A stretch of 64,000 bases of DNA, from positions 23,539,033-23,603,032 of the forward strand of contig NC_081360.1 of NCBI RefSeq assembly GCF_030684315.1. Direction: 5' to 3'. Positions 1,637 through 62,776 of this stretch are shown piece by piece; the stretch's first letter is position 1; each line of letters starts with the position of its first letter. The notes under the pieces were generated by a model. The model was not told the DNA's origin. It ran no database searches and saw only the letters and a list, made by a program, of their open reading frames with translations. The stretch is from Stegostoma tigrinum (Eukaryota). The position numbers and the translations under genes were made by a program.

Positions 1637-1681
1637 ATCTGGAAAGTCCTCAAGAGATGTTTCTGTTGACTTATTTTGTAC
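1637..1681 (-). CDS. copy 1 micro-exon (45 nt) VQNKSTETSLEDFPD
   Basis: tccag|...|gtgagt; homolog of 20912-20956. Confidence 0.8.
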
Positions 1682-4050
1682 CTGGAGTAAAACATTCAGA
1701 TTTAAATATTTTATCTTCTAAACCTTGAATTTTAGAATCATTTCAAAACATAACTTCTAAACGATGCCACATTTCAAATGAGTAAGTGGCAGTCCTTGCA
1801 AATTTTGGAATTGGGATTCAGTGCTGGACTGAACCAAACAGCTCCTGTTCTCCAGTGCAGCAAGAATTGACCCTGCTCTGGAACGTTCAGGCTTTGGTGT
1901 TGTTAGTTAAACTCGTCAAGTGTGAGATATGCCATTGAATCTGCAGTGCCCACTCTGCACAATATCCGTTACAAAGGAAGTGCTAGTAATTATAGACTAC
2001 TATTATTGAGAATGTAAGAAAGGCCATTCTCCTGATGCCGGCATTTATGCCTGATCAGACCTGTGGATATTCTACTGGCTTTACCTTCACTGAAGGCAAG
2101 ACACCTTGAGTGTATGTGAGTTTAAACATCAGACTCCCCACCCGCAGTTTTTTCAGGCTGAAATAAATAATCATTTCACACTTCATTCTGAAGCATTTGG
2201 ATTCTGGATTCTACTCATTTTTGTAGATAATTTGGATCAGGAGGAAAGTAATCTTTCAGAATTCCCAGTTTCTACTTACATTGGATGATTCTTTGATTCC
2301 TTTCTCCTTTGATTTGGTTTTGAGCTGGAATAAAATATTAACATATCTATATTTAATACAGAAGACCAATGAGGAATCTGGTAAACTATCTGAAATGTAA
2401 TATCTTCCAGTATCTTGTTGTATATAATTTTGAGGTTACCTCGACACTGTTTTCACTTGACTCAAATGATCCACTTTTACCGTTGATTGTCTTCAGCCCT
2501 CTGCACTCCACATCAACTTCTATAACCTCATCAGCATAATATTCAACGTGGCTTTTGCAAAAGCCTTTCTCCTGTCAAAACGGATTTGATTAAAATTACA
2601 CTCAGTACTTGCATGCTATAAAGCAGTACACGGTGCACTTTCTATCATATATCGCAATTTGAGCAGCTCTATCTATGTTATATAATCCAGTGCACATGGT
2701 TTTTCTGAGATGTAACTCGGCATACAGGGCCCTTCTTGTGATACACATCTGCTGATATGAGTGTGACAATATAACTCAGAACTTACTGCAGACTTTTTGG
2801 TTCGGAAGCGACAGCTGCGATCATCAAATTCCAGTCCAGAATTCTTGGAGCAGACTGTTTCTTTCACAGAGAATGTTAAATCCACATTGTACGACAATTT
2901 TCCTGTGCGATGAATCTAATGAGAGGGAAACAGTTCATTAGTAACATAGATACACAAGCAGGAGGCTGGAAAAATACAGCAAGCTAGGCAGCATCTGGAA
3001 GAGGAGGAATACTGCATCCAGTTCTGGTCGCCCTATTATAGGAAAGATGTGGATGCTTTGGAGAGGGTTCAGAGGAGGTTTACCAGAATGCTGCCTGGAC
3101 TGGCGGGTTTATCTTATGAAGAGAGGTTGACTGAGCTCGGACTTTTTTCATTGGAGAAAAGGAGGAGGAGAGGAGACCTAATTGAGGTATACAAGATAAT
3201 GAGAGGCATAGATAGAGTTGATAGCCAGAGACTATTTTCCAGGGCAGAAAAGGCTAACACGAGGGGTCATAGTTTTAAGCTGGTTGGAGGAAAGTATAGA
3301 GAGGATGTCAGAGGTGGGTTCTTTACACAGAGAGTTGTGAGAGCATGGAATGCGTTGCCAGCAGCAGTTGTAGAAGCAAGGTCATTGGGGACATTTAAGA
3401 GACTGCTGGACATGCATATGGTCACAGAAATTTGAGGGTGCATACATGAGGATCAATGGTCGGCACAACATCGTGGGCTGAAGGGCCTGTTCTGTGCTGT
3501 ACTGTTCTATGTTCTATGTTCTATGAATCAATGTTTTGGGTATTACCCTTCTTCGGGGATGAATGCTGGGGTAGGGGAAGCTAGAGATAGAGGGAGGGGT
3601 GAGGGGTAGCGGAATGGTGGTGATAGGTGGACTCCCATCAGTATGTGTAATATAACATTATGCTTCTGTTTAATAATTCGTGTCACACCGCGCTCAGTAA
3701 TATTCTTCTAGAATTTTGAGAGTGAAACCGACTGAGACCAGGACATACTTACATCCTTCACACTTCTCCTGGTTATCCTACACAGATTGCTGGTCTCAGT
3801 GATTTGGTTCAGTTTTAGAACAGACGCTCTCAGTGCATCCTTTGGGCTTGGTATTCCTGTCGAGAGAAAAGGAAAGTTGTACAAATCATTCTGGAGTTCT
3901 TCAGTGAGTTATTTTTACACATTGGTGATATCTCAGCGACTGAGACTCATTAGCAGTAATTTGTTCCTCAATGGGGTGATGCTCTCTCTGGTACCTACCT
4001 GAGCAGTGGAGAATCTGCACTGCAGCAATGGTGAGGAGGAAGGCTTTCAT
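1637..4050 (-). CDS. SPP2/Spp24-like paralog, copy 1 (3'-incomplete). Exons 3999-4050, 3753-3856, 2787-2915, 2440-2571, 2280-2324, 1637-1681; the rest presumably lies left of the window
   Basis: All introns are GT-AG with a consistent frame. Spliced protein: MKAFLLTIAAVQILHCS-GIPSPKDALRASVLKLNQITETSNLCRITRRSVKD-IHRTGKLSYNVDLTFSVKETVCSKNSGLEFDDRSCRFRTKKSA-EKGFCKSHVEYYADEVIEVDVECRGLKTINGKSGSFESSENSVE-LKTKSKEKGIKESSN-VQNKSTETSLEDFPD. The motifs DAL.ASV.K.N, F.V.ET.C.K.SG and C-x17-C match mammalian SPP2 as recalled. Confidence 0.85.
2280..2324 (-). CDS. copy 1 micro-exon (45 nt) LKTKSKEKGIKESSN
   Basis: ttccag|...|gtaagt; positional homolog of 21551-21595. Confidence 0.75.
2440..2571 (-). CDS. 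copy 1 exon 4 (132 nt, C-x17-C loop plus Ser/Glu stretch)
   Basis: cag|GAG AAA...GTC GAG|gtaacc. Confidence 0.9.
2787..2915 (-). CDS. copy 1 exon 3 (129 nt, first disulfide loop)
   Basis: tag|ATT CAT...TCT GCA|gtaagt; overlaps track ORF 2673..2897. Confidence 0.9.
3005..3525 (+). mobile_element. young 5'-truncated CR1-type LINE with a (TTCTATG)n tail, nested in a short Penelope-end fragment
   Basis: Uninterrupted ORF 3049..3435 (ALERVQRRFTRMLPG...RGDLIEVYKIM); microsatellite tail. Confidence 0.9.
3753..3856 (-). CDS. copy 1 exon 2 (104 nt)
   Basis: cag|GA ATA CCA...AAG GAT|gtaagt. Confidence 0.88.
3999..4050 (-). CDS. copy 1 exon 1 (signal peptide, 52 nt)
   Basis: ATG at 4050; MKAFLLTIAAVQILHCS+G; donor GTAGGT. 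Confidence 0.88.
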
Positions 4051-18737: not shown

Positions 18738-18743
18738 TTTATT
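18738..18743 (-). terminator. polyadenylation signal AATAAA, copy 2
   Basis: About 210 nt after the stop; copy 3 has ATTAAA at the homologous position. Confidence 0.65.
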
Positions 18744-18954
18744 GTGATCCACAGAATACAAAATAACAAAATACACCAATCGATACAACATTTACAAACT
18801 ATAGAATCTTCCAGTTACAGTAAAATGTACAATCAGGAACCCCAGGTCCCATCATCCTTATGTTTGAAAAAAAAGTACAATTGATTTGTCTTGTTTGATC
18901 AGAATAAGGCCTTGCGTTCACATCAAACTGGGTTTCCAGAATTTTTATTCCTGG

Positions 18955-18987
18955 TTAGTGACGGGATCTTGAATCATCATGGTATTC
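18955..18987 (-). CDS. copy 2 terminal coding exon EYHDDSRSRH*
   Basis: ttccag acceptor; TAA at 18957-18955; the 3'UTR is homologous to the copy 3 3'UTR. Confidence 0.78.
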   Translation of the reverse strand, partial: EYHDDSRSRH

Positions 18988-21900
18988 CTGGAATGAACAG
19001 CAGGAATACAAAAATTATTTTTGAATGGACTGAGTTCAGTCTGAGTTTGGTGTTTTATTGTTAATGTTGATCATAATTGAGAGACAGTTCTCTGGCACAA
19101 ATTCCCCAGCTTATACTTACATTTGAAGACATATCATGTGATGTTTCTGTTGATTTGCTTTTCACCTGCATTAAAATGTTCAGATTAATCAGTTTATCAT
19201 CAGGAATCAGTCAGACATTTTGTAGCTAATACTGAGTATATTAAATCATAAATGGGGAAATGTTAACTCTTGATATTTATGGCTCTCTGCGTAAAAGTAA
19301 ATAAATTTAAAAATACAGAACTGCCTCAGACACTATTGCCATGCAGCTGAACGCAGTCTTCATCGGTTTATTCAAGTTAATAATTATCTGACATAAACTT
19401 TCAAATTATACTCACATTGGGAGACTCCTCAACTGATGTTTCTGTTGATTCATTTTTCATCTGGAAAAGAAAGATTTATAACTTATAATTTAAAACTTTG
19501 CAGACAATCTTGATCACCTCAAAGTGCCTCATAGCTAAACCTTTAAATACAATCAGGTTATAAACAAAGAACTGATGAAACTTTAGATTCTGCATTGGGG
19601 TTCAACGGCTCACACTGAAATTTTCCATTTCAGATCCAAGATATTGAGCCGGATGAATCCCGTAGTGATGAGAAAGCTTGATCAATCAGTGTCAGGAGTT
19701 GACTGGTTAGCTTCTTGGTCATTTGCAAGGCTCAACAGTGAACCATCGCCTCTCCAGAAGCTGCTGCCAGTCAGAGACCATCAGTTTTTGCGTCTGAGAG
19801 GTTATCGGTGGGGGCCAAGTCCTTTAGGGGTCCACACAGGCGAGAAGGTAAAACTTTTTGCTTCAGTTCTCATGGGGTGGGGTTTGTAAGGAGCGGAATG
19901 TCAGGAGGAAATGCACGTAAGGGGCAGGGGTGTTTCAATGGTCACTACCCCTTGCACCATCCCCATCCTCCATCGCTGTTTTTAATTGTCCTCAGATTGT
20001 AACAAACGGATACCTCCCCAAACAGGCAGCGGGCCGCTCTGGTTTCCCACTGACAACTTTTCTCACCCACCAGGAAAGCAGCTGATTAGGACGATCATAT
20101 GTTGAGGCCTTTATTGATTGACCACTTCAAGGCCATATTTGCTGGCAAATTGGGAAGGAACTATGCATCCAGCACTAAATTACTGCGGCAGTGAGATGGG
20201 GGCAAGCAAGACTCCATAATGATTCACTCAATGATTTTCTCCAACCACCACATTCTTGCAGGGTTGATAATAGTTTGTCCTCACTGATGGAATGGAGAAA
20301 TATTCACTCCTATTCTCCTAATCTCAAAACAGCAGTGATAAATCCAGCTCTTGGGACGTGGGGCTGTATTGTTGATGGATAAATTACTGGAAGCCACATT
20401 GACCCTTCCACGTAAAGAAATGATGAGGAAATTGTAATCAATGATGCCCTCATGAAACCGTCAGATCGGCATATCGAGTTATTATAGTTCTTGTCAGTGG
20501 CATGTATTTTCCGTGAATCGAGAAAATTCTAAAATGTATGAAATAACTAACAGCTACTGGGCATCAATTCAACAAAATCCATAAACAACCCAACAGTAAC
20601 TAAACATCAGAATCTCCTCAGCCACAGCCTCTGTTTGGGCATTTATTTAATTAAATTATTTAGAGTCTATTGTGATAAACCCAGGTCTCAATGGGCTATA
20701 GGCATCAATATTGATCTGATGGTAGCTCAGTTTAGAGTTTGATACAGAATAATGCCAACAGTATGGAATCAATTCCTGCACCAGCTGAGGCAGTTCTTGT
20801 GACCACTCTGCTCAACTTGCCCCATGGTATTATCCGTAATTGCCTACCCTCAGTTAATGAGGATGCTCTATGAAGCGAAAGTGAGATAAGCACCTAGTGC
20901 AAAATACTTACATCCGGCAAGTCCTCAAGGGATGTTTCTGTTGACATGCTTTTCACCTGGAATAAAATATTTAATTCATATAATTAGCATTTTGCAAATA
21001 GTTTTGAATCATGGAATCATTTCCAAAGAAAAGCTTTAAATCACAGAAGATTATAGGTAAGGAGGTGACAATATTTTGAATTTCAGAGTCACAATTCTTT
21101 GACTCAAGTGTTGCTGTGGAAAAAACCGTTGCAGTAATAATCAATCCAGTTCTGGGACAATGGAGCTACAATGCTGATGGGTATAATAATGCAGACCATT
21201 CTCCATCAACTGGCATTTATTGTGTTGAATCTGCAGGTCCCTTCTAAATCAGACCAGTAGATAATGTATTTTATTGGTGAGAGGTAGTGTTGTCCTAGTG
21301 CCAATATATGTATCTGCCCAGTCATGTGGATGTTCAGCTGACATTAACCTCAGAGAAGAACAAATGCTCCCTCTGCATTTGACTTCCCCCTCCCCTACCC
21401 CAACATACCCTCTCCCCCAATATCTCAGATGAAAACAAATTAACATCTCATACTCCATTCCAACCTCGTTTCATTCTGGGTTTTATACATTTTTTTGATA
21501 ATTCTGCACAACAAGAAAATAATCTGACAAAGTTTTAAGTTTCTACTCACATTTGGTGATTCCTCAACTGACGTGGGTTTTGCTTCGGTTTTGACCTGTA
21601 TTGAAATATTAATATTGAAGTAATTAGCTCAGTAGAACAGTGAGACATGTGAATTTTCAAAATGATAGAAGCCTCATTGTCCTGATGTGTGTAATTGTGT
21701 GCTTACCTCAAGACTGTTTTCGTTCAACTCTGATGAGTCACTGTTGCTGTCAACTGTCTTCAATCCTCGACACTGTACATCAATGTCAACAATCTCATCA
21801 GCAAAATATGCAACATGGCTTTTGCACAAACCTTTCTCCTGTCAGAACAGAATTGATTAAAATTACAATCAGCACACTTTATAATGTAACTCAATACACA

Positions 21901-22862
21901 CATTGCTTTCTTCAATATAACGTGGAATAAATTGCTCATTCAGGGGTATACCTCTGTACCATGAGTATTTGAGTGTGACAGCACAATTCAGAACTTACTG
22001 CAGGCTTTTTGGCACGGAAGTGACAGCTAGGGTCATCGAATTCCAGTCCAGAATTCTTGGAGCAGATGGTTTCTTTCACGGAAAATGTTAAATCCACATT
22101 GTACGACAATTTCCCAGTGCGGTGAATCTAATGAGAAGAGAAACGTTTCATTAGTGTCTGACTGCAGCTGGAGTTCTTACTCTGGGTGGATTCACCCATC
22201 AGTGTGAGTAAAATAACGCGTTCTGTGGTGTAGATATTCAGTTGGCTGGACGGCTGCTTTGCAAGGGATGGGTGCAATTACTGTCCTGGCTGAGATCGCC
22301 ATGAATATAGCACCTCCTTGACATCGCCTTTCACCACAAGGCATGTTGACCTTCAGGTTAAGCAACAACCAGTCTCTTCAGTCTAAAGAGAGAGCATGAT
22401 GTGGTGGTGCCCTAGAGAGCAGCCCGATGTGCTCTGGAACTATGGTGACCTTACATTTACTTTCAATATGACATTCTTCTGCTTTGTAATAATCCGTGTT
22501 GCTCTGCACGCAGTAATATTCTTGCAGAGTTTAGAGAGTGAAACAGACTGACACACTTACATCCTTCACTCTTCTCCTGGTTATCCCGCACAGATTGCTG
22601 GTCTCAGTGATTCGGTTCAGTTTTAGAACAGACGCTCTCAGAGCATCCTTTGGGCTCGGTTTTCCTGCCAAAAGGAAAAGAAAACTGCACAAAACAGAAT
22701 TGTCTGGGGTTCTTTAGCGAGTTATTTTACACATTAGTGATATCTCAGTGAGTGAGCCTCATTGCCAATAACTCGTTGCTTGATGAGGTGCTGCTCTCTC
22801 TGGTACCTACCTGAGCAGTGGAGAATCTGCACTGCAGCAATGGTGAGGAGGAAGACCTTCAT
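18955..22862 (-). CDS. SPP2/Spp24-like paralog, copy 2 (complete, 9 coding exons, 209 aa). Exons 22811-22862, 22561-22664, 21999-22127, 21707-21838, 21551-21595, 20912-20956, 19416-19460, 19121-19165, 18955-18987
   Basis: 630-nt spliced ORF, all introns GT-AG: MKVFLLTIAAVQILHCS-GKPSPKDALRASVLKLNRITETSNLCGITRRRVKD-IHRTGKLSYNVDLTFSVKETICSKNSGLEFDDPSCHFRAKKPA-EKGLCKSHVAYFADEIVDIDVQCRGLKTVDSNSDSSELNENSLE-VKTEAKPTSVEESPN-VKSMSTETSLEDLPD-MKNESTETSVEESPN-VKSKSTETSHDMSSN-EYHDDSRSRH*. TATA box upstream and AATAAA downstream. Confidence 0.88.
19121..19165 (-). CDS. copy 2 micro-exon 8 VKSKSTETSHDMSSN
   Basis: 45 nt, phase 0-0, cag/gtaagt. Confidence 0.82.
19416..19460 (-). CDS. copy 2 micro-exon 7 MKNESTETSVEESPN
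   Basis: 45 nt, phase 0-0, cag/gtgagt. Confidence 0.82.
20912..20956 (-). CDS. copy 2 micro-exon 6 VKSMSTETSLEDLPD
   Basis: 45 nt, phase 0-0, cag/gtaagt. Confidence 0.82.
21551..21595 (-). CDS. copy 2 micro-exon 5 VKTEAKPTSVEESPN
   Basis: 45 nt, phase 0-0, cag/gtgagt. Confidence 0.82.
21707..21838 (-). CDS. copy 2 exon 4
   Basis: 132 nt, cag/gtaagc. Confidence 0.9.
21999..22127 (-). CDS. copy 2 exon 3
   Basis: 129 nt, tag/gtaagt. Confidence 0.9.
22561..22664 (-). CDS. copy 2 exon 2
   Basis: 104 nt, cag/gtaagt. Confidence 0.88.
22811..22862 (-). CDS. copy 2 exon 1 (signal peptide)
   Basis: ATG at 22862; donor GTAGGT. Confidence 0.88.
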
Positions 22863-24904: not shown

Positions 24905-26720
24905 CATTAAAAATAATGGGAACTGCAGATGCTGGAGAATCCAAGATAATAAAGTGTGAAGCTGGATGAACGCAGCAGGCCAGGCAGCATCTCAGGAGCA
25001 CAAAAGCTGACGTTTCAGGCCTAGAGCCTTCATCAGAGAGGGGGATGGGGAGAGGGAACTGGAATAAATAGGGAGAGAGGGGGAGGCAGACCGAAGATGG
25101 AGAGAAAAGAAGATAGGTGGAGAGGAGAGTATAGGTGGGGAGCAAGAGGCGGCGCCGATAGAGTCATCAATGTAACGGAGGAAGAGGTGGGATTTGAGGC
25201 CTGTGTAGGTGCGGAAGGGGGACTGTTCCATGTGACCTACAAAGAGGCAGGCGTAGCTTGGGCCCATGCAGGTCCTTATCCCCAGAGGAGCTCGAACAGT
25301 TCATCCACTTCACCAACACCTTCCACCCCAACCTCAAGTTCACCTGGGCCAACTCCAACACATCCCTCACCTTCCTGGATCTCTCAGTCTCCATCTCAGG
25401 GAACCAGCTAGAAAGTGATGTCCATTTCAAGCCCACCGACTCCCACAGCTACCCAGAATACACCTCCTCCCACCCACCCTCCTGCAAAAATTCCATCCCC
25501 TATTCCCAATTCCTCCGCCTCCGCCGCATCTGCTCCCACGATGAGGCATTCCACTCCCGCACATCCCAGATGTCCACGTTCTTCTAGGACAGCAACATCC
25601 CCCCCCGTAGTGGTCGAAAACGCCCTTGACTGTGTCTCCCGCACTTCCCGCAACACATCCCTCACACCCCGGCCCGCCACAACCGCCCAAAGAGGATCCC
25701 CCTCGTTCTCACACACCACCCCACCAACCTCCAGATACAACGCGTCATCCTCCGACACTTCCGCCATCTACAATCCGACCCCACCACCCAAGACATTTTT
25801 CCATCCCCACCCTTGTCTGCCTTCCGGAGAGACCACTCTCTCCGTGACTCCCTTGTTCGCTCCACACTGCCCTCCAACCCCACCACACCCGGCACCTTCC
25901 CCTGCAACCACAGGAAGTGCTACACTTGCCCCCACACCTCGCCCCTCACCCCCATCCCAGGCCCCAAGATGACTTTCCATATTAAGCAGAGGTTCACCAG
26001 CACATCTGCCAATGTGGTATACTGCATCCATTGTACCCGTTGTGGCTTCCTCCACATTGGACAAACCAAGCAGAAGCTTGGGGACCGCTTTGCAGAACAC
26101 CTCCACTCGGTTCGCAATAAACAACTGCACCTCCCAGTCGCGAACCATTTTAACTCCCCCTCCCATTCTTTAGACGACATGTCCATTATGGGCCTCCTGC
26201 AGTACCACAATGATGCCACCCGAAGGTTGCAGGAACAGCAACTCATATTCCGCTTGGGAACCCTGCAGCCCAATGTTATCAATGTGGACTTCACCAGCTT
26301 CAAAATCTCCCTTTCCCCACCACATCCCAAAACCAGCCCAGTTCGTCCCCTCCCCCCACTGCATCCCAAAACCAGCCCAGCCTGTCTCCGCCTCCCTAAC
26401 CTGTTCTTCCTCTCACCGATCCCTTCCTCCCACCTCAAGCAGCACTTCCATTTCCTACCTACCACCTCATCCCGCCTCCTTGACCTGTCCGTCTTCCCAG
26501 GACTGACCTATCCCCTCCCTACCTCCCCACCTATACTCTCCTCTCCACCTATCTTCTTTTCTCTCCATCTTCGGTCTGCCTCCCCCTCTCTCCCTATTTA
26601 TTCCAGAACCCTCTCCACATCCCCCTCTCTGATGAAGGGCCTAGACCCGAAACGTCAGCTTTTGTGCTCCGGAGATGCTGCTTGGCCTGCTGTGATCATC
26701 CAGCTTCACACTTTATCAAT
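24905..26720 (+). mobile_element. Penelope-like retroelement (RT C-terminus plus GIY-YIG endonuclease) with an inverted 5' segment (24905-25270)
   Basis: MGPSYACLFVG..RYIDD on the minus strand; FLDLSV..HFKPTDSHSY..IPYSQFLRLRRICS; NVVYCIHCTRCGFLHIGQTKQKLGDRFAEH; an in-frame stop at about 25585 indicates inactivation. Confidence 0.92.
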
Positions 26721-27429
26721 CTGGTTACATTGTTGCCTTTCCATATCTCTGTCTTCCTTCTGATTACAACTTATTTCTCACCCATGTTCCATGCCACAGA
26801 GAACAACCGAAACTTTTTTAATGGTTAGCTTTTAATTTGAACAAGAGGAAGTTGTGTAAATTGTTATGAAGGGAGTGGTGTGCAAAGCCCAGTGGGATTT
26901 CTTGCCATATCCTATCAAACACAAAGCATTACCTGCCTACCGAACACCCAAGGGGTCCTTCATGTCTGATTCAAGGCTCATCTTACCACGCACTAATCCT
27001 GGAACAATTCAACATGCAGAAGATGAACTGAAAGGCCAACATCCCTTGTGCCCATACCACCTTTGAAAGCCTGTTGTGCACTCAGACTGTCAATCCAGAT
27101 CTGCCCTGTACAGTTTCTGAAACACCGAGGCATGTTTGGGGCAGAGACCTGGACTCCGCCCACTTGTTTAACCTGTCTATATCCATTTGCAGAGTCTTTG
27201 TGTCATCCTCACCACTTGCATTCCCATCTGCTGAACCATTTTTGTGTCATCCACAGACTAGGCGTCAGCACATTGACTTATGAGCGTAAGAGCACTTGCC
27301 GTGTCCTGTGCCCTAATATCTACTGCAAACAATTATGGCCCCAGCACTGGCCATTATGTGGCACTCCATGAGTTGCAGTTTGCCATACCGAAAATGACTC
27401 TGTCCCAACTGAGAAAATTCATAATGCTG

Positions 27430-28145
27430 AAGTACAGATGGATCTGGGAGTGCTAGTCCAGGATTCTCTACATGTTAACTTGCAGGTTGAGTCCACGATT
27501 AAGAAAGTGAATGTAATGTTGCCACTTATCTCAAGAGGGTTGGAATGTAAAAGCAGTGATGTGCTTTTGAGACTTTATAAAGCACTAGTTAGGCCCCATT
27601 CAGAATACTGTGTCCAATTTTGGGCCCCACACCTCAGGAAGGATATACTGGCACTGGAGCGTGTCCAGCGGAGATTCACAAGGATGATCCCCGGAGTGGT
27701 AGGTCTAACATATGGTGAATGGCTGAGGAACCTGGGATTGTATTCATTAGAGTTTAGAAGGTTGAGGGGAGATCTAATAGAAACATACAAGATAATGCAT
27801 GGCTTAGACAGGGTGGACGCTGGGAAGTTGTTTCCGTTAGGCGGGAGACTAGGACCCGTGGGCACAGCCTTAGAATTAGAGGGGGTAAATTTAAAATGGA
27901 AATGAGGAGACATTTCATCAGCTAGAGAGTGGTCAGCCTGTGGAATTCATTGCCACAGAGTGCAGTGGAGACCAGGACATTAAATGTCTTCAAGGCAGAG
28001 ATTGATAATTTCTTGATCTCGCAAGTAATTAAGGGCTATGGGGAGAGTACGGGTGTGTGGAGTTGAAATGCCCATCAGCCATGATTACATGGCAGAGTGG
28101 ACTCGATGGGCCGAATGGCCTTACTTACATTCCTGTGTCTTATGG
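27430..28145 (+). mobile_element. 5'-truncated CR1-type LINE
   Basis: ORF 27438..27905 (DLGVLV...LYKALVRPH.EYCVQFW); a closely related 3' end is at 30970-31215. Confidence 0.9.
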
Positions 28146-33359: not shown

Positions 33360-36300
33360 TGGAGTCATAGAATCATACAACACAGAAACTGACCCTTCGG
33401 TCCAACCAGTACATACTAACCATAACTCCAAACTAAAATAATTGCACCTGCCTGCACTTGGCCCATAAACCTCTTAACATTTCTTATTTGTGTTCTTATC
33501 TAAACATTTTTTTTCAGTGTTGTAATTGTACCTGCATCCACCACTTCCTCGGGAAGTTCATTCCACACATGAATGACTGTGTAAAAAAATTTCCCTTCAT
33601 GTCTTTTTTCAACGTTTCTCCTTTCACCTTAAAAATACGCACCCTAATCTTGAAATCTCCCATCCCAGGTAAAAGGCAACTGCTGTTTACCTTATCTATA
33701 CCCCTCATGACCTTATCAGCATCTATAAGGTCACCCCTCAACTTCCTCCATTCCAGTGGAAAAAATCCCAGCCTATCCAGGCCTGCCTGATAAATCAAAC
33801 CCGCCATAGAAACTATAGAAGATAGGAGCAGGGGGAGCCATTCAGCCCCTCGAGTCTGCTTTGCCAATCTTCAAGATCATGGATGATCATCCAACTCAAG
33901 AGCTTAAACCTGCTTTCTCCCCATTGATCCTATTCACCCCAAGCACTATCTCTAGTGACCTCTCAAATACATTCAATATTTTGGCATCAACTACTTCCTG
34001 TGGTAATGAATTCCACAGGTTCACCACTCTTTGGATGAAGAAATGTCTCCTCATCTCCATCCAAAAATGTTTACCCCGAATCTTGGTTCTGGATAAGCCC
34101 ACCGTGGAGAACATCGTCCTTATATATATCCCAATAGAATTTTATAAGTCTCTATGAGATCGCCCCCATTTGTTTGATCCCTAGCAAAAACACCCTAACC
34201 TGCCCAATCTCTCCTCATACATCAGACCAGCCATCCCTGGAATCAGCCTGGTGAACTTTCGCTGCACTTCCTCAAGAGCAAGAGTATCCTTCCTCAGAAA
34301 AGGAGACCAAAATTGCACACAATATTCCAGGTGCCGTCTCACCAAGACTCTCTACAACTGCAACAACGCATCTCTGCTCGTGTACTTGAAACCTCTCGCA
34401 ATGAAGGCCAACATACCATTTGCCTTCTTTGTCACCTGCTGCACCTGCATGCTTACCTTCAGCAATTGATATACAAGGACACCCAGATCCTGCTGCACAC
34501 TCCCCTCTCCCAATTTATAGCCGTTCAGGTAATAATCTGTTTTCACTATCTTGCTTCCGAAGTGCATAACCTCCCATTTATCCAAATTATACTGCATCTG
34601 CCATTGATTTGCCCACTCACCCGACCTGCCCAGATCATGCTGAAGGATTTCTGCATCAAGAACAAAGAACAAAGAAAATTACGGCACAGGAACAGGCTAT
34701 TCGGCACCCAAGCCTGCACCAATCGAGATCCTTGGTCTAAAACTGTCATCTATTTTCTAAGTGTCTGTATCCCTTTGCTTCCCTGCCCATCTATGTACCT
34801 GTCCAGATACATCTTAAAAGACACTTTCGTGTCTGCGCCTACCACCTCCACTGGCAACGCGTTCCAGGCACCCACCACCCTCTGCATAAAGAACTTTCTA
34901 TGCATATCTCCCCTAAACTTTCCTCCTCTCACTCTGAACACATGACCCCTAGTAATTGAGTCCCCAACTCTGGGGAAAAGCTTCTTGCTATCCACCCTAT
35001 CTATACCCCTCATGATTTTGTAGACCTCAATCAGGACCCCCCTCAATCTCCGTCTTTCTAATGAAAGTAATCCTAATCTACTCAACCTTTCTTCATAGCT
35101 AGCACCCTCCATACCAGGCAATATCCTGGTGAACCTCCTCTGCAGCCTCTCCAAAGATCCACATCCTTTTGATAATGTGGAGATCAGAACTATACGCAGT
35201 ATTTTAAATGTGGCCGAACCAAAGTCTTATACAACTGTAACATCCTCATCAAGATTCAACCTCCCACCCAACTTGGTATCATCTACAAACTTGGAGATGT
35301 TACATTTTGTTCCCTCATCCAAATCATTAACATATGTTATGAATAGCTGGGGCCCCAGCACTGATCTGTGTGGCACCTCATGAGCTGTAGCCTACCAATT
35401 TGAAAAGGACCCATTAATTTCTACTCCTTGTTTCCTCTCCGACAACTAGTTTCCTATCCATCGCAATACACTTCCCCAATCCCATGTGCTTTAATCTTGC
35501 ACATTAACCTCTTACACTGGACTTTGTCAAATGCTTTATGTACGACATCAACTGGCTCCCCCTTGCCAACTCTGCTGGCTACATCTTCATAGAATTCCAA
35601 CAGATTTGTCAAGCATGGTTTCCCTTTCATAAATCCATGCTGACTTTGTCTGATCCTGCCACTGTTTTCTAAATGGTCTGCTTTAGAATCCTTAACAATG
35701 GATTTGAGAATTTTCCCCACTACCGATGTTAGGCTCACTGGTCTATAATTTCCTGTTCTTTCTCTACTTTCCTTATTGAATACTGGAGAGACATTAGCCA
35801 CCCTCCAATCTGCAGGAACTGTTCCTGAGTCGACAGAATTCTGGAAGATGATCAACAATGCATCCACAATTTCTAGAGTCACTTCCTTAAGTACTCTGGG
35901 ATCTAGATTATCAGGTCCTGGGGATTTATCAGCCTTCAATCCCAACAACTTTCCCAGCACCATTTCTCTACTAATATTGATCTCCCTCAGTTCTTCTCTC
36001 TTGTTAAATTTTGCATCCTGTAACAATTCTGATATCTGATTTGTCTCCTCTTTTGTGAAGACAGAACCAAAGTATGCATTCAGTTTCTCAGCCTTTTTTT
36101 ATCCCCTATTATACATTCCCCCGTTTCTGTCTGTAGGGGACCTACATTTGTCTTTACCAGTCTCTTCCTCTACATGTACCTATGGAAACCATTCCTGGAA
36201 ACATCCTGGTACATCTCTTCTGAATCCTCTCGAACTTAATGATATCCATCCTATAACAGGGACACAACGCTCCAGAGAGGCCTCAATAACATCTTGTGCA

Positions 36301-41623: not shown

Positions 41624-41637
41624 TCACCATAGTGTCC
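41624..41637 (-). CDS. copy 3 terminal coding exon (TGA at 41626-41624 in the shifted frame; ancestral frame runs to 41578)
   Basis: ttccag acceptor; homologous to 18955-18987. Confidence 0.65.
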
Positions 41638-44600
41638 CTGGAAAGAACAGCATGAAGGCAATGGTCATTTTCAGATGCAATTAGTTCAATATTTTATTGT
41701 TATTGATGATCATGACCGAGAGACTATTCTTGGCACTAAGTCCCAGTTTATACTCACGTTTGAAGCCTCCCGCAGTGACCAGTCTTTTGATTTGTTTGAC
41801 ACCTGTATTTAAAAGTATCAGGTATCAATTTATTTTTACTTCTCTAAATTTACAGATTCATATGAAATTTGCTGTTTACAATGATATTAGATTACAAATT
41901 ATTAGATTTTGAAAGGTGATGAAACAGTAACTCCTTAGATTTCAGAGTTGGGAATTCAACAACTCAGCGAAGAAATCCTCACCAGTGCAGCAATAGTCTG
42001 TTCAGCCCTAGGATAGGGGTTCTTGCATAAATTAATGGAGAGTCAGGTTATTGATGAGATTGCCCCTCTTGTGCATTCTTAAAGACACAGGGATTTTTGT
42101 TTGGCAAGTATTGAACATCTAAAAGTTGATCCATTACATTTTTTAAGCGTGAAATAATTTTCATGGGAACAGGTAAACATCTCCTCTTAAGTCCCTCCCA
42201 AAATCCTTTGACTAGCACTGGCGAAGACTTGACAAGATTCATCAGGTCGCCTTCCTTCCCTGGCTGATTCGGGGTGACGTTGAATTCATTAAAAACATAG
42301 CACAGTGCTGTCACAGACTCCACTCTAACCAGAGAAATACGCCATGTGGTTGCCAATAGTGTTGTGGCAAAAATCCAGATATATACTCACGTTTGTAGAC
42401 TCTTGGACGTGGAGTTCTTCTCATTTTCACCTGAATTTAAATAGAAATATTTATATATGCAGTCCAGGGGTTGATGTGATGTTTCTTTGAAACTTTAGCT
42501 TTAGCATCATCAAAACTCAATAACCAAAACAACAGATTAAAGGAGGAGATTTAAAATAGTAAATTTCTGGGATGTGGTGCAATGTATCAGTGTGGAATGG
42601 GGGTGAAGGCATCACCAAATATGTGAATGGTTTACATTGATCATTGGTCAAGATGCTAAAGTAATAAAATGGACTGCGTTGTGTTGACCCTCGGATAATA
42701 AAGAGGAATTATTTCTTTGAACAGCAGCAAGCAATAATAACATCTCTGTGCAGGTTTACTGCTGGTGAAAAGTCAAGAGCTGCTCTGGCTGTCATTCCAT
42801 TGCAGCAGGGGTTCGCCAAAGGAAGAGTCTGAAGATACAACTTCAAGCCTGACAAAATCTGAGTCTAGAGCAAAAGGCAAAGTCAGAGACCCTATTGTCC
42901 AGATGAGTTAAGTTGTGAGGTTACCTCGATGCTGTTTTCACTGGACTCGAAAGATCCACTTCTGCTGTCAAATGTCTTCAATCCTCGACACTCCACATCA
43001 ACGTCAACAACTTCATCAGCAAAATATTCAACGTGGCTCTTGCAAAATCCTCTTGCCTGTCAAATGAAATGGGAGACTTTTCAAGTTATTTATTACTGGG
43101 AGACTATTAAAGATATTTATTACATCATTTTCAGACTGAAATCTGAAGGGAGCTCAATGCACATACAAGTCAATGCACATAGATATTTCTATTATATAAT
43201 CTGATAAATGACTGCCTTTTCTTTACAAAACATAATCAATACTCACAGCCCTGCTTACGATATGACCAAATGCACACAGTCCATTCTGCGACATAAATCA
43301 TCATACAAGGCCCTTTCTCGGATAATTTTCACAGCATGCAACACTTTCTATGACATTGCATAATACACATTGCACTTTCCACTTATAATTCAATACTCAT
43401 GACCCCTTCTATGATACTCATTAATCAATACCCACAACCTTTTCTAACATAACCTTGCGCACATGGCATTTTTTTGATATAGCTCAATACAGAGCCCTTC
43501 TACCCTTTCTGTGATAATCTTTGGTATACACAATACTTTCTATTATATAATTCTGTGCACTTGTAATTTGAATGTAGTTGTGAAGTTTAGAGTCATAGAG
43601 TCTCAAACAGACACTGCGGTCCAACCAGCCCATGCCGAACATAATCCCAGGCTAAGTAGACCCACCTGCCTGTTCTTGGCCCTTATCCCTCTAAACATTT
43701 CTTACTCATGTATTTGCCTAAATGTCATTTAAAGGCTGTAAATGTGCCCACATCCACCACTTCCTGGGGAAGTTCATTCCACACGCAAACCACTCCTGTG
43801 TAAAACAATTGCCCCTCATGTCTTTTTAAAATCTTTCCTCTGTCACCTTAAAAATATACCCTCTATTCTTGAGCTCCCCACCCTATGGAAAAGACACCTG
43901 CTATTCACCTCATCTATACCCATCATGATTTTATAAACCTTTAGATACCCCTCAACTTACTGCGCTCTAGAGAAAAAAGACTCAACCTATCCAGCCTCTT
44001 CCCGTAACTCAAACCCTCCATTCCAGGCGACATCCTGATAAATCTCTTCCGAACCCTCTCCAGCTTAATTATATCCCTCCATAAAGCAGGCAGGCCAGAA
44101 CTGGACACAGTACTCTAGAAGAGGCCTCACCAATATCCTATACAACCTCAACATGATGTCCCAACTCCTCCACACAAAGGCCTGAGTATTGAAAGCAAGC
44201 ATGCTAAATGCCTTCTTAACCACCCCATCTATATGTAATGCAAAATTCAAAGAATTATTACATACCTAAAACCCAAGTCTATCTGTTTCTCTGATATTAC
44301 TCAATATGCAAGTCACTTTCTATAATAAAGCTGAGTATACCGTAACTTTCAATGGCATAACTTTGTATGCATGAAGTTTGAATGTGACAAATGTAACTCA
44401 GAACTTACTGCGGCCTTTTTGGGATGGAAGCGGCAGCTGGGGTCATCAAATTCCAGTCCAGAATTCTTGGAGCAGACTGTTTCTTTCACGGAGAAGGTTA
44501 AATCCACGTTGTATGACAATTTTCCTGTGCGGTAAATCTAATGAGAGGAAAACAGTTCACTAGTGTCTGACTGTACTTGGTTTTCTTACTCTGAACTGAC

Positions 44601-46553
44601 TGACCTCCTACGTAAGAATCACAAGGACAACAATGCCAATTTATATAAAATCTTTAATGTAACAAACTAACCACAAGATGCTACACAAGAGTGTTATAAA
44701 GCAACATTTTGCACTGAACCAAATAAGGTAATGGTTGAATAATTGCCAAAAGGTCAATCAAGGAGGAATCAAAGACAGAAGTGGAGAGATAGCGAGGCAC
44801 AGGCAATGAATTTCAAAGCTTAGAGCCCAGGTAGCTGAAGGCAAAGACGCTAATAGTGGAGAGATGAAAATCAGGAATACTCACTGATATGTAAGGGCTT
44901 AATAGTCTTAATGGATTAATGATAAGAAGTGCATAAAATGTTATCACTTGGACTTGGGTGGGGAGTCAGCTTTGCGTCTTGAAGGAGTAAGAACTAACAT
45001 CAAGGTGTATCGCTGACTCATTGGCAGTGCCTATCATACCAACAGTACTTAGTATCTGGCTACTATCACACAACAAACTTCATCTTATTTAAGTTAAGAG
45101 TATCTTCTCATTATACTACAAAGAATTGTTTTCTCAACGAGAGTAGACCAAGTGGACCCAGTCGTCCCTATCAGGGAAGAGAATGATGTCAGCAAATCTA
45201 CCGGATAGCTCTTACCCCATGGTGTGCTGTGGTGAGGATTCATCTTACAACATTCATGAAGGCAGAAATGAGGACTGGAGGTATCAAGGGAGTGTTGTGA
45301 ATTTGCAGGAAATCAGGGGAGTCAGGAGTGAGGACAAAGGAGGGTTTGCGAAATTTTAAAATCAAGGTATTGTTTGACTTGCAGCTAATGAAGGCTGCAG
45401 GGTGATCATGGTAACAGACCTTGCTACGAATTACGACACATGCAGCAAACCTTTGTACGAACTCAAGTTTATGGAGGAGAAAGGATGAAAGATAAGTCAG
45501 ATGTGCAGCTGAATAGTCAGGTTTATATAATATTGTGAGAATCAAAAATGGAAATTGCTGATAAAACGGATGTTGCCAGCAATTCTGTTTTTGTTTCAGA
45601 TCTCCAACATTCACAGTTCCTTGTTATATTGTAACAGCATGAGAATATTTTTAATAAGACCAATAGTAGACCATTCTGCCCCTCAAGTCTGCACACAATT
45701 CCATAAAATCATGGCTGATCTGATTGTGTTGTAGATTCCACGTTTACTGCCTATCCCCCTACCTGTTGACCAGAGGTCTAGAGGTAAGAACAAGGGCTTC
45801 AGCAGCAAATGAGCTGAGACTAGGGTTGAGACAAGCGATGTTACAGAGACAGAAACTAGCAGACTTGGTGACGATATGAAATTCTGCTCGGAAGCTCTTC
45901 TCAGGGTCAAAAACGTTAGAAGGGGTCTGGTTGAGCCTGAGACAGTTGTGGTGAGAGTGACAAGAGCCAAGTGGAATTGCAACTTGAAATAAGTCAGTGC
46001 GTCAGCAGGATCTCCAAAGGATGACATGAGAGATACAGAGGGAGCAATAAGCTGATCTCACAGAGTGGGAAATCTGGGATAGTTGAGGAGAACTGGAAGG
46101 ACAGAGAATTGAGCCAGTAGGAGGCATGATAAAGAAGGAGTGGAAACTAGGAAGAATGAAGGAAAAATAAGCTGAAAGAGAAGAGGAATAAATGTTCTCA
46201 GTAATAATGTTGTAGAGTTTAGAGAGTGAAACAGACTGAGGCCAGGACGCACTTACATCCTTCACTCTTCTCCTGGTTATCCCGCACAGATTGCTGGTCT
46301 CAGTGATTCGGTTCAGTTTTAGAACAGACGCTCTCAGAGCATCTTTCGGGCTTGGTTTTCCTGTTGAGAGAAAAGGAAAGTTGTACAAAACATTCTGGAG
46401 TTCTTCAGTGAGTTATTTTACACATTGATGATATCTCAGCGAGTGAGCCTCACTGCCAATAACTTGTTGCTCAATGGGGTGCTGCTCTCTCTGGTACCTA
46501 CCTGAGCAGTGGACAATCTGCACTGCAGCAATGGTGAGGAGGAAAACCTTCAT
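41624..46553 (-). CDS. SPP2/Spp24-like paralog, copy 3. Exons 46502-46553, 46257-46360, 44409-44537, 42925-43056, 42391-42430 (40 nt), 41758-41802, 41624-41637; 171 aa with a cationic tail
   Basis: MKVFLLTIAAVQIVHCS-GKPSPKDALRASVLKLNRITETSNLCGITRRRVKD-IYRTGKLSYNVDLTFSVKETVCSKNSGLEFDDPSCRFHPKKAA-ARGFCKSHVEYFADEVVDVDVECRGLKTFDSRSGSFESSENSIE-VKMRRTPRPRVYKRVKQIKRLVTAGGFKRTLW*. If the 40-nt exon is skipped, the tail reads VSNKSKDWSLREASN-GHYGDSRFQHQAGMKLLKS* (stop at 41578). Confidence 0.8.
41758..41802 (-). CDS. copy 3 micro-exon (45 nt)
   Basis: tacag/gtgagt; homolog of copy 2 exon 8, with a shared downstream intron. Confidence 0.78.
42391..42430 (-). CDS. copy 3 frame-shifting micro-exon (40 nt)
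   Basis: ttcag|GTGAAAATG...TCTACAAAC|gtgagt; both ends resemble the 45-nt exon family, but it is 5 nt shorter. Confidence 0.68.
42925..43056 (-). CDS. copy 3 exon 4
   Basis: 132 nt, cag/gtaacc. Confidence 0.9.
43590..44290 (-). mobile_element. 5'-truncated CR1-type LINE in copy 3 intron 3
   Basis: ORF 44065..44250 (LYRILVRPLLEYCVQFW). Confidence 0.85.
44409..44537 (-). CDS. copy 3 exon 3
   Basis: 129 nt, tag/gtaagt. Confidence 0.9.
46257..46360 (-). CDS. copy 3 exon 2
   Basis: 104 nt; inside track ORF 46002..46388. Confidence 0.88.
46502..46553 (-). CDS. copy 3 exon 1 (signal peptide)
   Basis: ATG at 46553; donor GTAGGT. Confidence 0.88.
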
Positions 46554-58850: not shown

Positions 58851-59009
58851 TTACTCCACTTTGGATTCCTGGTTCTGTTTACGATTTGGCTTCTTTCTGG
58901 AGGATAATCCTTGGCTCAAAGGCTTGCCTTGCTTATTGGGTCTTCTTGGGTTGGCATCATTTCCACGGCTCTGAGGAAATTGCTTGTTATTCTGGTAATT
59001 CCAGTCAAC
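58851..59009 (-). CDS. spp2: spp2 last coding exon (159 nt including TAA)
   Basis: Pyrimidine tract plus ctag acceptor; open in phase 0; AATAAA at 58692-58697 downstream. Confidence 0.72.
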   Translation of the reverse strand, partial: VDWNYQNNKQFPQSRGNDANPRRPNKQGKPLSQGLSSRKKPNRKQNQESKVE

Positions 59010-62000
59010 CTAGCATTGAATAGAGAGAAGTTTACTTCCAAGCCCTTCCTGTTGACCGATCATGTCATTTCAAGGATGAGCAAGTCGCAGATAGTGGAAT
59101 GAGAGGTGAGCGAGTGCAGTCTGACACTGACTGACTGTGCCATCATTTCACAGCTTGCTCCTTTATTTAGAATAGCTCATTCAGGGATTAGTGTGCGGGC
59201 AGACATTCATCAAAGAGGTCAAAGGTGATGGCGTGAGAGCTACCACTCAGCTTGGGGCTGGGAGAGGTGTTGGACAGGGCTAGTAACCATCACCAGTTCT
59301 CGAAAGAAATGCCAAGTGGTTGGAAAGCTGTATTTTTTGGAGGAGTCTTAGTTGTCCTCTGACTTGGGCTCCCAGGTGAACAATACTCACAGCTGCAGCA
59401 GAATGGATAAAAGTTCACTGGGGGCTCATTCTCAAAGAACAAACATGACTGTATCTGCTCCCTGTTATAGCCCCATCCAGCGTTCCATTCTATTATATTC
59501 GAGACAAGTGTGTATTACAGGTAGGTGTGCATGGCACAAGAGACTAAAACAAAACCACCTATTTGATAATAGTTGAATTCCTGTGCCAATCCCAGTTATC
59601 TCACAGTGGGTCCCACAGAGTGTCCCCCACCCTTTCACAGCCTGCCTCACCAAAACCAGCAGATGCTCTGTCCTTTAATGGCCCTTGGAAATCCCATTTG
59701 GAAACCAATGCTACAAAGGGAATGGACTAGAATGGGCATAGCTACACGCTGAAGGCATTGATTTCAGATTGTCACCAAGACTTACTGATGAATAATACTC
59801 ATCCTGGAATTTTGGTTGTCTTCTTCGGTACCACATCTGCAATAAAAATATATTGTTTCATATAAATATTCATACACAAAGCCACAGAAATTATTTTGGA
59901 AACAAAATGATTCTCCAAAACAGAATTTAATAAAATTTATTATTATATAATTTGTTGAATCTCGAAGATGACGATGAGTGGAAGTTCTCTGAGTATATTA
60001 GCCTCTGATCGACTACTCCTGAGTTATGAGCACAAACCCAGCTGATTTACCTATATTCATTCTGCACCTTCAACATCCCTGATTTTAATTGATCCACTAT
60101 AGGGGGGCCAATGCCTTCGGCTGTCTGGGCCTCAGACTTTTGGAATTTTTTCCCGAAACCTCTCTGCCTCATTTTCTGTTCAAACATATTGTGAATGGCG
60201 TCTATTTGACCAATCTGTTGTTCATTTATCCTAGTACCTCCTTATCTGGCTCATTGCTGAGCTTTGATTTAGAATGGTCCTGTGAAGGGCCTTTGGCGGG
60301 ATCTTTTATTAAACTAGTGGTGCTATATAAATACAGGTTAATGTTGATAACTTTAATTATTTTGTAGATTTTATTTCAGAGTGATTTGTGATGACGACCA
60401 TGTCAATTTTCTGTGAAGGATTGCTTCCCTTTGTCTCAAACGTTGATTTTTAAGGCAGTTGAAAGCTCTCTCAGTAAAGCTTCATTCTAACACATTTATG
60501 AAGCTTTCTTCTACCTAAAGTCCAGGCAGAGCCTTCGTCCATGATTGCAATTGAGATGAAACATTGTGACAGGGCCAATGGGTTCAGTAAGTCCTGCACA
60601 GTCCAGTATTGCTATATTCCTGTGACTAATTCTCCGTGCTGTAATAGCTCTGGGTACAATGAAAAAAAATGACAACATCACAGTAAACTGTATAAATCAG
60701 CACAAATAGTGCAAAAGCACTCAGCAAAATCCCAAAACAATATAGGCAATAGAAATGTGATGTCTGGGCAGTCACATATCTTTCCCAAGGCTCAAATGAA
60801 GTCAATCCATGTCTACGTAATTATCTCTCTCTTTCCCTCTAGGCTCTATCTCTACTTCCTCAGGAGGCTAAGGAAATTCGGCATGTCCAGAATGACATTT
60901 ACCAATTTTATAAATGAACCATAGAAAACATCCTATCTGGATGCACCACAACATGGTATGGCAACTGCTCTTCTCAACACCACAAAAATCTACAGAGAGT
61001 CTTTAACACAGCCTTCACAAAAAGTAGCCTCTATCCATTGATTCCATCTACACTTCCCACTGCAAGCAAGATAATCAAAGAGACCCTCCACACTCTGGTT
61101 ATATTCTCTTCCAACCTCTTCCATTGGGAAGAAGATATAAAGCTTTGAATACACGAACGAATAGATTCAAGAAACATTTTCTCCCCAGTGTTTTCAGATT
61201 TCGGAATGGACCTCTCAAATGTTAATTAATTCTGATGTCTCTCTCCCTCTGCACCTCCTCTGCAGCTGTAACACTGTATTCTGCACCCTGTCCTACTACC
61301 CTGATACACTTTATTTGGTATAATCTGTCTGGATAGCTCAAAACAACACCTTTCACTGTTTCACAATACATGTGACAACAATCAATCAATCTCCACTTAT
61401 CACTTACTCCTTTACAAACCCCTCCCCTCTTTTCAGCCCCATCTTCAGCATATATACCAACATCTTCCTAGTTACAATCAGTTCTAAAGAATGATGAGTG
61501 GACCCGAAAAGCTAATTCTGCTTTCTCTCCACTTTTGCTGCCAAACTTGCTGAATTACTCCAGCAATTTCTTTTCTCATTTCAGGGCTATGCAATTGCAA
61601 AAACAACTGATCAGATCTAAGGTCTGCAGTCCTGCCATATCCATTCGTGAATGGTGGGAGACAACTAATCAGCTCACTGGAGAAGGAGACTCCAAAAATA
61701 TCCCCATCCTCAATAATGGGACAGCCCAGCAATCAGTGCAAAAAATAAAGCTGAAGCATTTGCAGCAATCTTCAGCCGGAAATGTTGAATAGATGATCCA
61801 TCTCAGCTTCTTCCAGAGGGCCTGTCTTCAGCCAATTTGATTCACTCCATACTATATCAAGGAACACTGAATGCAGTGAATAATACAAAGGCTATGGACT
61901 CTGACAATATTCCAACAATACTCCTGAAGACCTTACCCAATTGCAGATCAGATCCCCAACCACAATCATGCTGCTTTTCACCCCAGTGTTGCGATCAGAC

Positions 62001-62776
62001 CACCTACTCCTCACATGTTCCCAGTGGCAGCTGAAGAATCAGTTGCTGATGCACTCTGGCATTTCCCCACCTCACCTTGGCAGTCTCACTGAATTCTAGG
62101 GCACAACCAGGAAGATGGCGGAATTTGAATTTGTTAAATGTCTGGTATTAGGAGTCAAACAATGACTATGAAACCATTGCCAATTGTCAGGGGAAAAAAA
62201 ACCCATCTGGCTCACCGATGCCCTTTCGAAAAGGGAACTGCCACCCTTACCTGGCCTGGCCTACACATGACTCCAACACGCACAGCAATATAGCTGGCAC
62301 TTAACTGCTCTTAGGGCAATCAGGGAGAAATTAATAATTGTTGGCCCAGCCAGGGATGCCCACATTCCATGAGTGGATTTAAAAAAAGTTAATTCCAGTT
62401 AAATATATAAGAAATTAAATTGGAATATATGAAAACATTTAGAATTTATAGTTGTGCTAAAACTGGAGTGGAGAACCTAAGCCTATCCAAGCCTGGATCA
62501 GTTGAATAAGTACGGCAAGGAAAGGTTAACTGGGAGAACCGGTTGTTGAGGCCAATTCAATTGCAAAATTTACACATCTATAAGACATAAGAGGGTACAT
62601 TTACCATTACTCAGAATAATGAGCTTAAAATAAAAGATTACCTCTTCATCACTTTCAAAGGAGGCTGATTCACTGCTGCTGTCCATGAATGCATCTCTGC
62701 TGTCCATGCACTGTAGATACACATCAACGACTGCACCAAAGGAATAGCTAACGCGGCTTTGGCATGTGGTCATTTT
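58851..62776 (-). CDS. spp2: 3' part of secreted phosphoprotein 24 (probable canonical spp2, or a further paralog). Exons 62642-62776, 59786-59836, 58851-59009; the 5' exons lie right of the window
   Basis: Phase-0 GT-AG exons give KMTTCQSRVSYSFGAVVDVYLQCMDSRDAFMDSSSESASFESDEE-MWYRRRQPKFQDEYYSS-VDWNYQNNKQFPQSRGNDANPRRPNKQGKPLSQGLSSRKKPNRKQNQESKVE*. This reproduces the SPP2 order (C-x17-C loop, poly-Ser/Glu ending S.EE, next exon starting with M, basic tail). Confidence 0.75.
59786..59836 (-). CDS. spp2: spp2 exon (51 nt) MWYRRRQPKFQDEYYSS
   Basis: ttgcag/gtaagt. Confidence 0.72.
60840..61392 (+). mobile_element. Rex1/Babar-like LINE 3' fragment with (AATC)n tail, in a spp2 intron
   Basis: RLYFLRRLRKFGMS..TNF..IE.ILSGC.T.WYGNCS motif. 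Confidence 0.75.
62642..62776 (-). CDS. spp2: spp2 exon (135 nt; TRH1/BMP-binding-type loop plus phosphoserine cluster)
   Basis: tgcag|AAA ATG...GAA GAG|gtaatc; overlaps track ORF 62570..62773. Confidence 0.85.

Follow-up and report, generated by a model that had tools for sequence, protein, structure and literature searches.

The window, a stretch of 64,000 nucleotides from Stegostoma tigrinum, carries on its minus strand a gene with nine coding exons, here called gene B, together with paralogs A and C and the 3′ part of an spp2.1-type paralog. It also contains decayed frames at 25630-26763 (+), 35454-36098 (-) and 27372-27905 (+), which we take to be retroelements of GIY-YIG/Penelope-like and CR1/L2-like kinds. 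The exons of gene B are joined into a model of 209 aa and are laid out as follows.

22811..22862, minus: exon 1, signal peptide; 52 coding nt, followed by a phase-1 intron
22561..22664, minus: exon 2, helix and first strand of the cystatin-like domain; 104 coding nt
21999..22127, minus: exon 3; 129 coding nt, matches Pfam Spp-24 (PF07448)
21707..21838, minus: exon 4, end of the domain and Ser-rich linker; 132 nt, S-x-E end, phase 0
21551..21595, minus: 45-nt module 1; one S-x-E
20912..20956, minus: 45-nt module 2; two S-x-E
19416..19460, minus: 45-nt module 3; two S-x-E
19121..19165, minus: 45-nt module 4; one S-x-E and another across the next junction
18738..18987, minus: terminal exon; 10 codons and stop at 18955-18987, then 3′ UTR

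The model agrees letter for letter with the 209-residue RefSeq protein XP_048391351.1 (labelled secreted phosphoprotein 24-like, Stegostoma tigrinum), the four modules included, and the coding part of the terminal exon agrees with RefSeq model P0002. An AATAAA lies within the terminal exon at about 18738-18743. The earlier note had described four 45-nt phase-0 exons, and all four are present with the peptides it quoted; a pyrimidine tract and AG precede, and GT(A/G)AGT follows, each of them. Seven of the eight introns are phase 0, intron 1 being phase 1. In all three window copies, exon 4 closes with an S-x-E (SLE, SVE, SIE) followed by a phase-0 donor, also as claimed. The splice signals, the RefSeq model and the models of orthologues suggest that all four modules are included in the gene B mRNA; module number and donors vary among the models of relatives (P0003, P0007, P0016, P0018). 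A contig from run X1 covers 18900-21900 unspliced with a single, intronic difference, but it provides no independent support because it may be the source of the window sequence itself.

Identity and modular tail of gene B

The gene B protein matches the Pfam Spp-24 profile (PF07448) at 34.6 bits against a cut-off of 26 (E 2e-8), and the Pfam result for P0002 is Spp-24 rather than Cathelicidin. A Ser-rich S-x-E linker follows the domain at the end of exon 4. AlphaFold gives a block of pLDDT 81-94 at residues 21-120, and residues 22-119 form a helix and four strands, a predicted cystatin/cathelin fold whose closest structural counterparts are cathelin and cystatin domains. A sequence search of solved structures returned a single weak match, cystatin F (E 0.28). 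Residues 127-209 fall under pLDDT 50, and this tail is predicted to be disordered.

Gene B is a spp2.3-type member of the elasmobranch spp2 cluster. Its protein is 77% identical to catshark spp2.3s4 (P0040) and 51% to an spp2.2-like protein; it shares the module and the terminal exon with spp2.3, and the spp2.1 and spp2.2 genes are separate in the cluster. The protein tree was rooted on the spp2.2-like row and so gives no independent test of spp2.3 membership. The description of these genes as Spp24 duplicates holds. SPP2/Spp24 membership is also marked by a conserved sh3bp4/arl4c/nme9/vps8 locus, and XP_048391351.1 is itself an entry in the published spp2 synteny table (Table S14; PMC13188829).

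The four modules are copies of one homologous unit. They are pairwise identical, in register, at 27-34 of 45 nt, with a mean of 30.8/45 against a shuffled mean of 12.8 and a maximum of 17.7 among 5000 shuffles. Chance exon-like matches were rejected as an explanation. Since the shifted frame holds a stop in all four modules of gene B, frame 0 is their usable frame; among the acidic modules of this genome, 12 of 19 contain a shifted-frame stop. The eight S-x-E motifs counted previously are all found (two in exon 4 and six inside the micro-exons), and a ninth straddles the junction of module 4 with the terminal exon at 18955-18987, an exon absent from that count. Nine motifs compare with 3.0 expected from composition (P = 0.00015). 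The tail is 23% D/E with a net charge of -8 over 70 aa, and the calculated charge with all seven sites phosphorylated is about -22. Because the tail alone is only mildly acidic, its charge would depend on the kinase.

The module was followed through a set of 178 proteins, of which 36 carry the basic motif treated below, 60 without a terminal anchor were dropped, and 82 are non-basic with both anchors. The middle of the protein measures exactly n x 15 aa in 57 of these 82, n being mostly 3 or 4; the other 25 depart from it because of additional donors, units of 14 or 16 residues, or errors in the models. Across the 206 modules of the 57 proteins, Ser5 is kept in 97%, Glu7 in 95%, Ser9 in 93% and Glu11 in 79%. 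Inspection by eye of the catshark spp2.3s7 probe, whose sequence derives from a predicted transcript, finds the spliced form, in which three 45-nt units are flanked by the same exon-4 end and the same terminal exon. Across sharks and rays, the tail is a 15-codon exon module repeated one to seven times.

These numbers bear on the view that function resides in the cystatin-like domain, through BMP binding and gene dosage, and that the tail is a tolerated repeat of drifting length. The range of one to seven modules among paralogs and species fits such drift, as does the broken state of two of the nine local copies, and BMP2 binding and precipitation inhibition have been ascribed to the domain (PMC13188829). 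Drift sits poorly, however, with the retention at 79-97% of S and E in both S-x-E motifs while their neighbours vary, with a motif count above the composition expectation, and with a basic tail peptide that is conserved in sharks and rays. We therefore regard this view as unlikely, if the best placed of the alternatives, and prefer a tail with a function of its own.

The spp2 cluster and its frame-switched copies

The remaining spp2-type features of the window lie on either side of gene B.

1637..4050, minus: paralog A, acidic; exons 1-4 plus modules at 2280-2324 and 1637-1681; equals P0041
42925..46553, minus: paralog C, exons 1-4, from exon mapping
42391..42430, minus: paralog C, 40-nt frame-shifting short copy of the 45-nt module, phase 0 to 1
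41758..41802, minus: paralog C, 45-nt module in the shifted frame, Lys/Arg-rich peptide
58851..62776, minus: spp2.1-type paralog, 3′ part; outgroup for tail architecture
62642-62776, minus: spp2.1-type exon 4; ends S-x-E-E, phase 0
59786-59836, minus: spp2.1-type tail exon, single; 51 nt, phase 0, Arg-rich
from 59009, minus: spp2.1-type terminal exon

Searching with exon 3 located nine copies in a 240-kb span of contig C9, and a tenth, the spp2.1-type copy, overlaps the end of the window. Copy number was not taken from the genome-wide Pfam Spp-24 search, which gave only two weak exon matches. Exon maps sort the nine copies into four acidic-tailed genes (module numbers 4, 4, 6 and up to 4), two basic-tailed genes, one spp2.2-like gene with a single module and two broken copies. 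Two further modules and the terminal exon of paralog A lie just beyond the window.

The cluster (G000:C9:23480033-23791999) consists of two halves in opposite orientation with one basic copy each, the minus-strand copies running up to spp2.1 and the plus-strand copies starting from the spp2.2-like gene. The 5′ exons of the spp2.1-type gene, which is without a module array, reach about 69480, beyond the window. The broken spp2.3 copies lie at G000:C9:23516600-23518793 (-) and 23739205-23744750 (+); one of the pair has a 131-nt exon 4 with the donor lost, the other has stops in exon 4, and both carry a 42-nt variant of the module. In copy c9 (G000:C9:23758251-23758770, +), module 2 lacks a GT donor, and splicing in the models moves to a later donor with a gain of five residues, which is also the case in Chiloscyllium and Rhincodon; the models leave out module 3, whose donor is GC.

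The third window copy (C) lacks an acidic tail, its module being read in a shifted frame with a basic product. Copy C (window 41637-46553, -) and copy c6 (G000:C9:23705885-23708900, +) both have a first module of 40 nt. These 40-nt exons align to the module majority with a score reached by none of 3000 shuffles; derivation from the Arg-rich spp2.1 exon was rejected, about 510 of 3000 shuffles reaching that score. Contigs of runs X1 and X2, which are all unspliced and come from one sample that is possibly the source of the window, are identical at the 40-nt exon of copy C. The second exon of the basic copies is identical to the module majority at 30-31 of 45 positions (shuffle maximum 24 among 20000) and, read one base over, encodes R-V-K-Q-I-K-R-L-V. 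Frame 0 of this exon holds a stop in c6, and C differs from c6 at two positions, both silent in the shifted frame. Although the RefSeq model of copy C extends into the last intron, an intact acceptor at window 41637 gives an R-T-L-W-stop end, as in whale shark and c6. The basic frame must be derived, since phase 0 is kept all through spp2.1, spp2.2 and most copies of spp2.3.

The basic motif occurs in 36 of the 178 proteins and in 19 of 22 elasmobranch species (12 sharks and 7 rays); within this set, no basic tail was found in white shark or in two Mobula species. In all basic proteins the first exon encodes 13 residues, the last three being [VI][YI][KR], and the second peptide is the same. 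A sevengill copy agrees with the shifted majority in 9 of 14 residues, and ten of the 36 proteins (nine ray, one sawshark) stop after 10 residues, at the stop of the shifted majority. After exon 4, catshark spp2.3s1 and s2 carry net charges of +10 and +14 and no S-x-E. The amphipathic pattern of the basic tail is reached by 5 to 22% of shuffles and is not significant.

On the question whether these tails arose once or several times, a domain tree of 78 chosen proteins and 126 columns groups the proteins by lineage, with 9 changes for the basic label, and rejects a single basic clade (AU p = 0.0001); a single origin therefore needs homogenisation of the 5′ part. The basic label takes 15 changes on a tree of exons 1-3, 7 of them forced by starred branches (77 rows, few columns, weak support), and 8 changes on an exon-4 tree, 1 of them forced (77 rows, weak support). 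Copies C and c6 are 97% identical in exon 4, 96% in the module and 92% in the UTR, as against 76-81%, 51-64% and 78-85%, respectively, between basic and acidic copies of this genome. Upstream of this, the cluster copies resemble one another at 81-100% in promoter, exon 1 and intron 1, which suggests gene conversion; any two copies compared in this genome are 81-98% alike in upstream DNA and intron 1, and such likeness in every pair, with divergence from exon 4 on, is what 5′ gene conversion predicts. To judge from this gradient and the shared peptide, a net loss of 5 nt in the first module most likely took place once, before the split of sharks and rays.

It could be held instead that basic tails arose repeatedly by like frameshifts, or that they act in host defence, as cathelicidin does, and not in mineralisation. 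The absence of a single basic clade on the domain tree would agree with this, and the nearest folds are cathelin domains. Cathelicidins combine a cathelin domain with a cleaved cationic antimicrobial peptide; the predicted fold is similar here, and the Pfam family of P0002 is Spp-24. Repeated frameshifts do not readily account for a 13-residue first exon and a second peptide common to all basic copies, the C/c6 gradient from exon 4 fits 5′ gene conversion, and the catshark basic genes s1 and s2 are restricted to cartilage. This alternative is improbable, and one ancient loss followed by 5′ gene conversion is the origin that we prefer.

Relation to SCPPs and to published spp2 expression

The tail of gene B had been described as an SCPP-like design on a non-SCPP gene. 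Mature SCPP proteins are not known to have a folded domain. Gene B as an SCPP was considered and rejected: it belongs to the Spp-24 family, it keeps the cystatin fold, and its contig has no SPARC-domain match, all eight such matches lying on contigs other than C9. The design itself is SCPP-like in that the product is secreted, S-x-E-rich, predicted to be disordered and built of phase-0 modules. The convergence that had been proposed does not stand in full, because phase-0 features are inherited: the spp2.2-like gene also has an exon 4 with an S-x-E end at phase 0, followed by one 45-nt module, and the phase-0 tail introns of gene B occur likewise in spp2.1 and spp2.2. What is derived is the S-x-E-loaded module, single in spp2.2 and multiplied in spp2.3. 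A tail built by exon duplication is thus upheld as to duplication, S-x-E enrichment and predicted disorder, while the exon 4 end and the short phase-0 exons are not novel.

SCPPs originated from the 5′ part of sparc-L, which they adjoin, with loss of the Kazal/calcium-binding domain (PMC9122587). Elasmobranchs have their own scpp, derived from sparc-L and with phase-0 introns (Leurs et al., 2022, PMC9122587), and the statement that the bony-vertebrate SCPP repertoire is absent or much reduced in cartilaginous fishes was too strong. Acidic SCPPs and the elasmobranch scpp resemble gene B in secretion, S-x-E motifs, mostly phase-0 introns and mineralised tissue, but SCPPs are without a folded C-terminal domain, whereas gene B has a predicted cystatin fold and a phase-1 first intron. 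The parallel is an analogy only. A look at PMC7814152 found nothing on intron phase.

Nearer relatives differ mainly in the tail. Bony-vertebrate SPP2/Spp24 shares the signal peptide, the Spp-24 domain and a Ser-rich linker ending in SSEE, but it is a single, liver-expressed gene (PMC13188829) rather than part of a tandem cluster, and seven bony-vertebrate-type sequences have 3-4 S-x-E after the domain, against 9 here, and no 15-residue repeat. Elephant shark Spp2 (XP_007905871.1) is spp2.3-type, with 22 S-x-E counted and a module-like segment at its end; it differs in its shorter internal repeats and in a basic patch within the same chain. In this single holocephalan protein (P0180), one tail combines acidic repeats with a basic patch; in elasmobranchs the two are divided between paralogs.

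The expansion of spp2 in cartilaginous fishes into four clades has been reported recently (Debiais-Thibaud et al., 2026, BMC Biol, PMC13188829), with S-x-E accumulation in the duplicates as putative Fam20C sites. The spp2.3 clade of that study resembles gene B in its tandem cluster, its cystatin-like domain with conserved Cys, its Ser-rich linker and its many S-x-E. Both spp2.2 and spp2.3 are expressed in mineralising chondrocytes, where catshark spp2.3 also gives in situ signal, and neither in liver (PMC13188829). Catshark spp2.3 genes reach 71-2708 TPM in three cartilage samples, against 0-0.17 TPM in liver, no more than 0.07 in blood and a maximum of 1.3 in denticles and dental lamina (PMC13188829). 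By our calculation from Table 2 of that paper, s1 and s2, the basic genes, contribute 42-45% of the total spp2.3 TPM across the three cartilage samples, a share that multi-mapping may blur; near-identical 5′ exons blur the per-gene TPM of catshark spp2.3.

Expansion, S-x-E build-up, cartilage expression and the functional idea are thus mostly in print already (PMC13188829). The words 'exon', 'intron', 'frameshift' and 'lysine' do not occur in the main text of that paper, and neither the 15-codon exon module (1-7 repeats) nor the 40-nt frame-switched Lys/Arg copies appear in its text. According to that source, all duplicates accumulate S-x-E, with an Arg-rich end only in catshark spp2.1 and spp2.L2; the basic tails of catshark spp2.3s1 and s2, without S-x-E, run counter to these statements. 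Our literature search turned up nothing further on shark spp2, no paper that links spp2 to exon phase or frameshift, and none that brings together Fam20C, S-x-E and secreted phosphoprotein 24.

The expression values favour the mineralisation role of the earlier note where it concerns cartilage, catshark spp2.3 being found in mineralising chondrocytes, and go against its serum, tooth and denticle variants, where TPM is at most 1.3 (PMC13188829). A liver-made serum mineral chaperone, comparable to mammalian Spp24 and fetuin-A in calciprotein particles, would continue the role of the mammalian orthologue (PMC13188829) and would suit the signal peptide and predicted phospho-tail, yet the liver and blood values given above make it very doubtful. 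Least plausible of all is an SCPP stand-in in the enameloid and dentine of tooth or denticle, which has secretion, S-x-E and short phase-0 exons in its favour but meets both the very low spp2.3 TPM in denticles and dental lamina (PMC13188829) and the expression there of spp2.Like genes and true elasmobranch scpp (PMC13188829, PMC9122587).

A proposed phosphate-tuned tail and cationic partner in mineralising cartilage

In the reading that we favour, with a probability of roughly 0.7, gene B is a spp2.3-type duplicate whose four-module, predicted-disordered tail would become a polyanion on phosphorylation by Fam20C and, in that form, probably bind calcium phosphate where cartilage mineralises. 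Reasoning from the catshark orthologues, mineralising chondrocytes would secrete the protein, Fam20C would phosphorylate the serines of the predicted S-x-E sites, and the polyanionic tail may bind calcium phosphate and so control crystal nucleation or growth locally. The modules probably multiplied via tandem duplication or unequal crossing-over. As each module is 3n in length and phase 0-0, its duplication keeps the frame, and frame-keeping multiplication would let module number set phosphate capacity. In a sister sub-lineage (C and c6), a net loss of 5 nt in the first module placed the downstream module in its Lys/Arg frame, and this cationic partner would bind polyanions within the same matrix, whether glycosaminoglycans, mineral or phospho-tails.

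More tentatively, a two-charge system may have been made from this one 45-nt module, in which module number tunes phosphate and an ancient frameshift gave a cationic tail. Both forms would have persisted in sharks and rays, with expression in catshark cartilage at about 57:43 (acidic to basic), and they may either co-assemble or partition between mineral and proteoglycan. We consider this extension possible but less likely than its opposite.

To explain how cartilage is mineralised in sharks and rays, whose SCPP genes are few, spp2.3 is at present the leading candidate. Our exon map supplies a concrete mechanism for the S-x-E build-up that was noted by eye in PMC13188829, and it makes the copy-number idea of that paper countable, as modules per genome. 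The basic paralogs qualify its statement that all duplicates accumulate S-x-E. They are, in addition, a clear and long-conserved example of how the frameshift of an existing exon can give rise to a new peptide.
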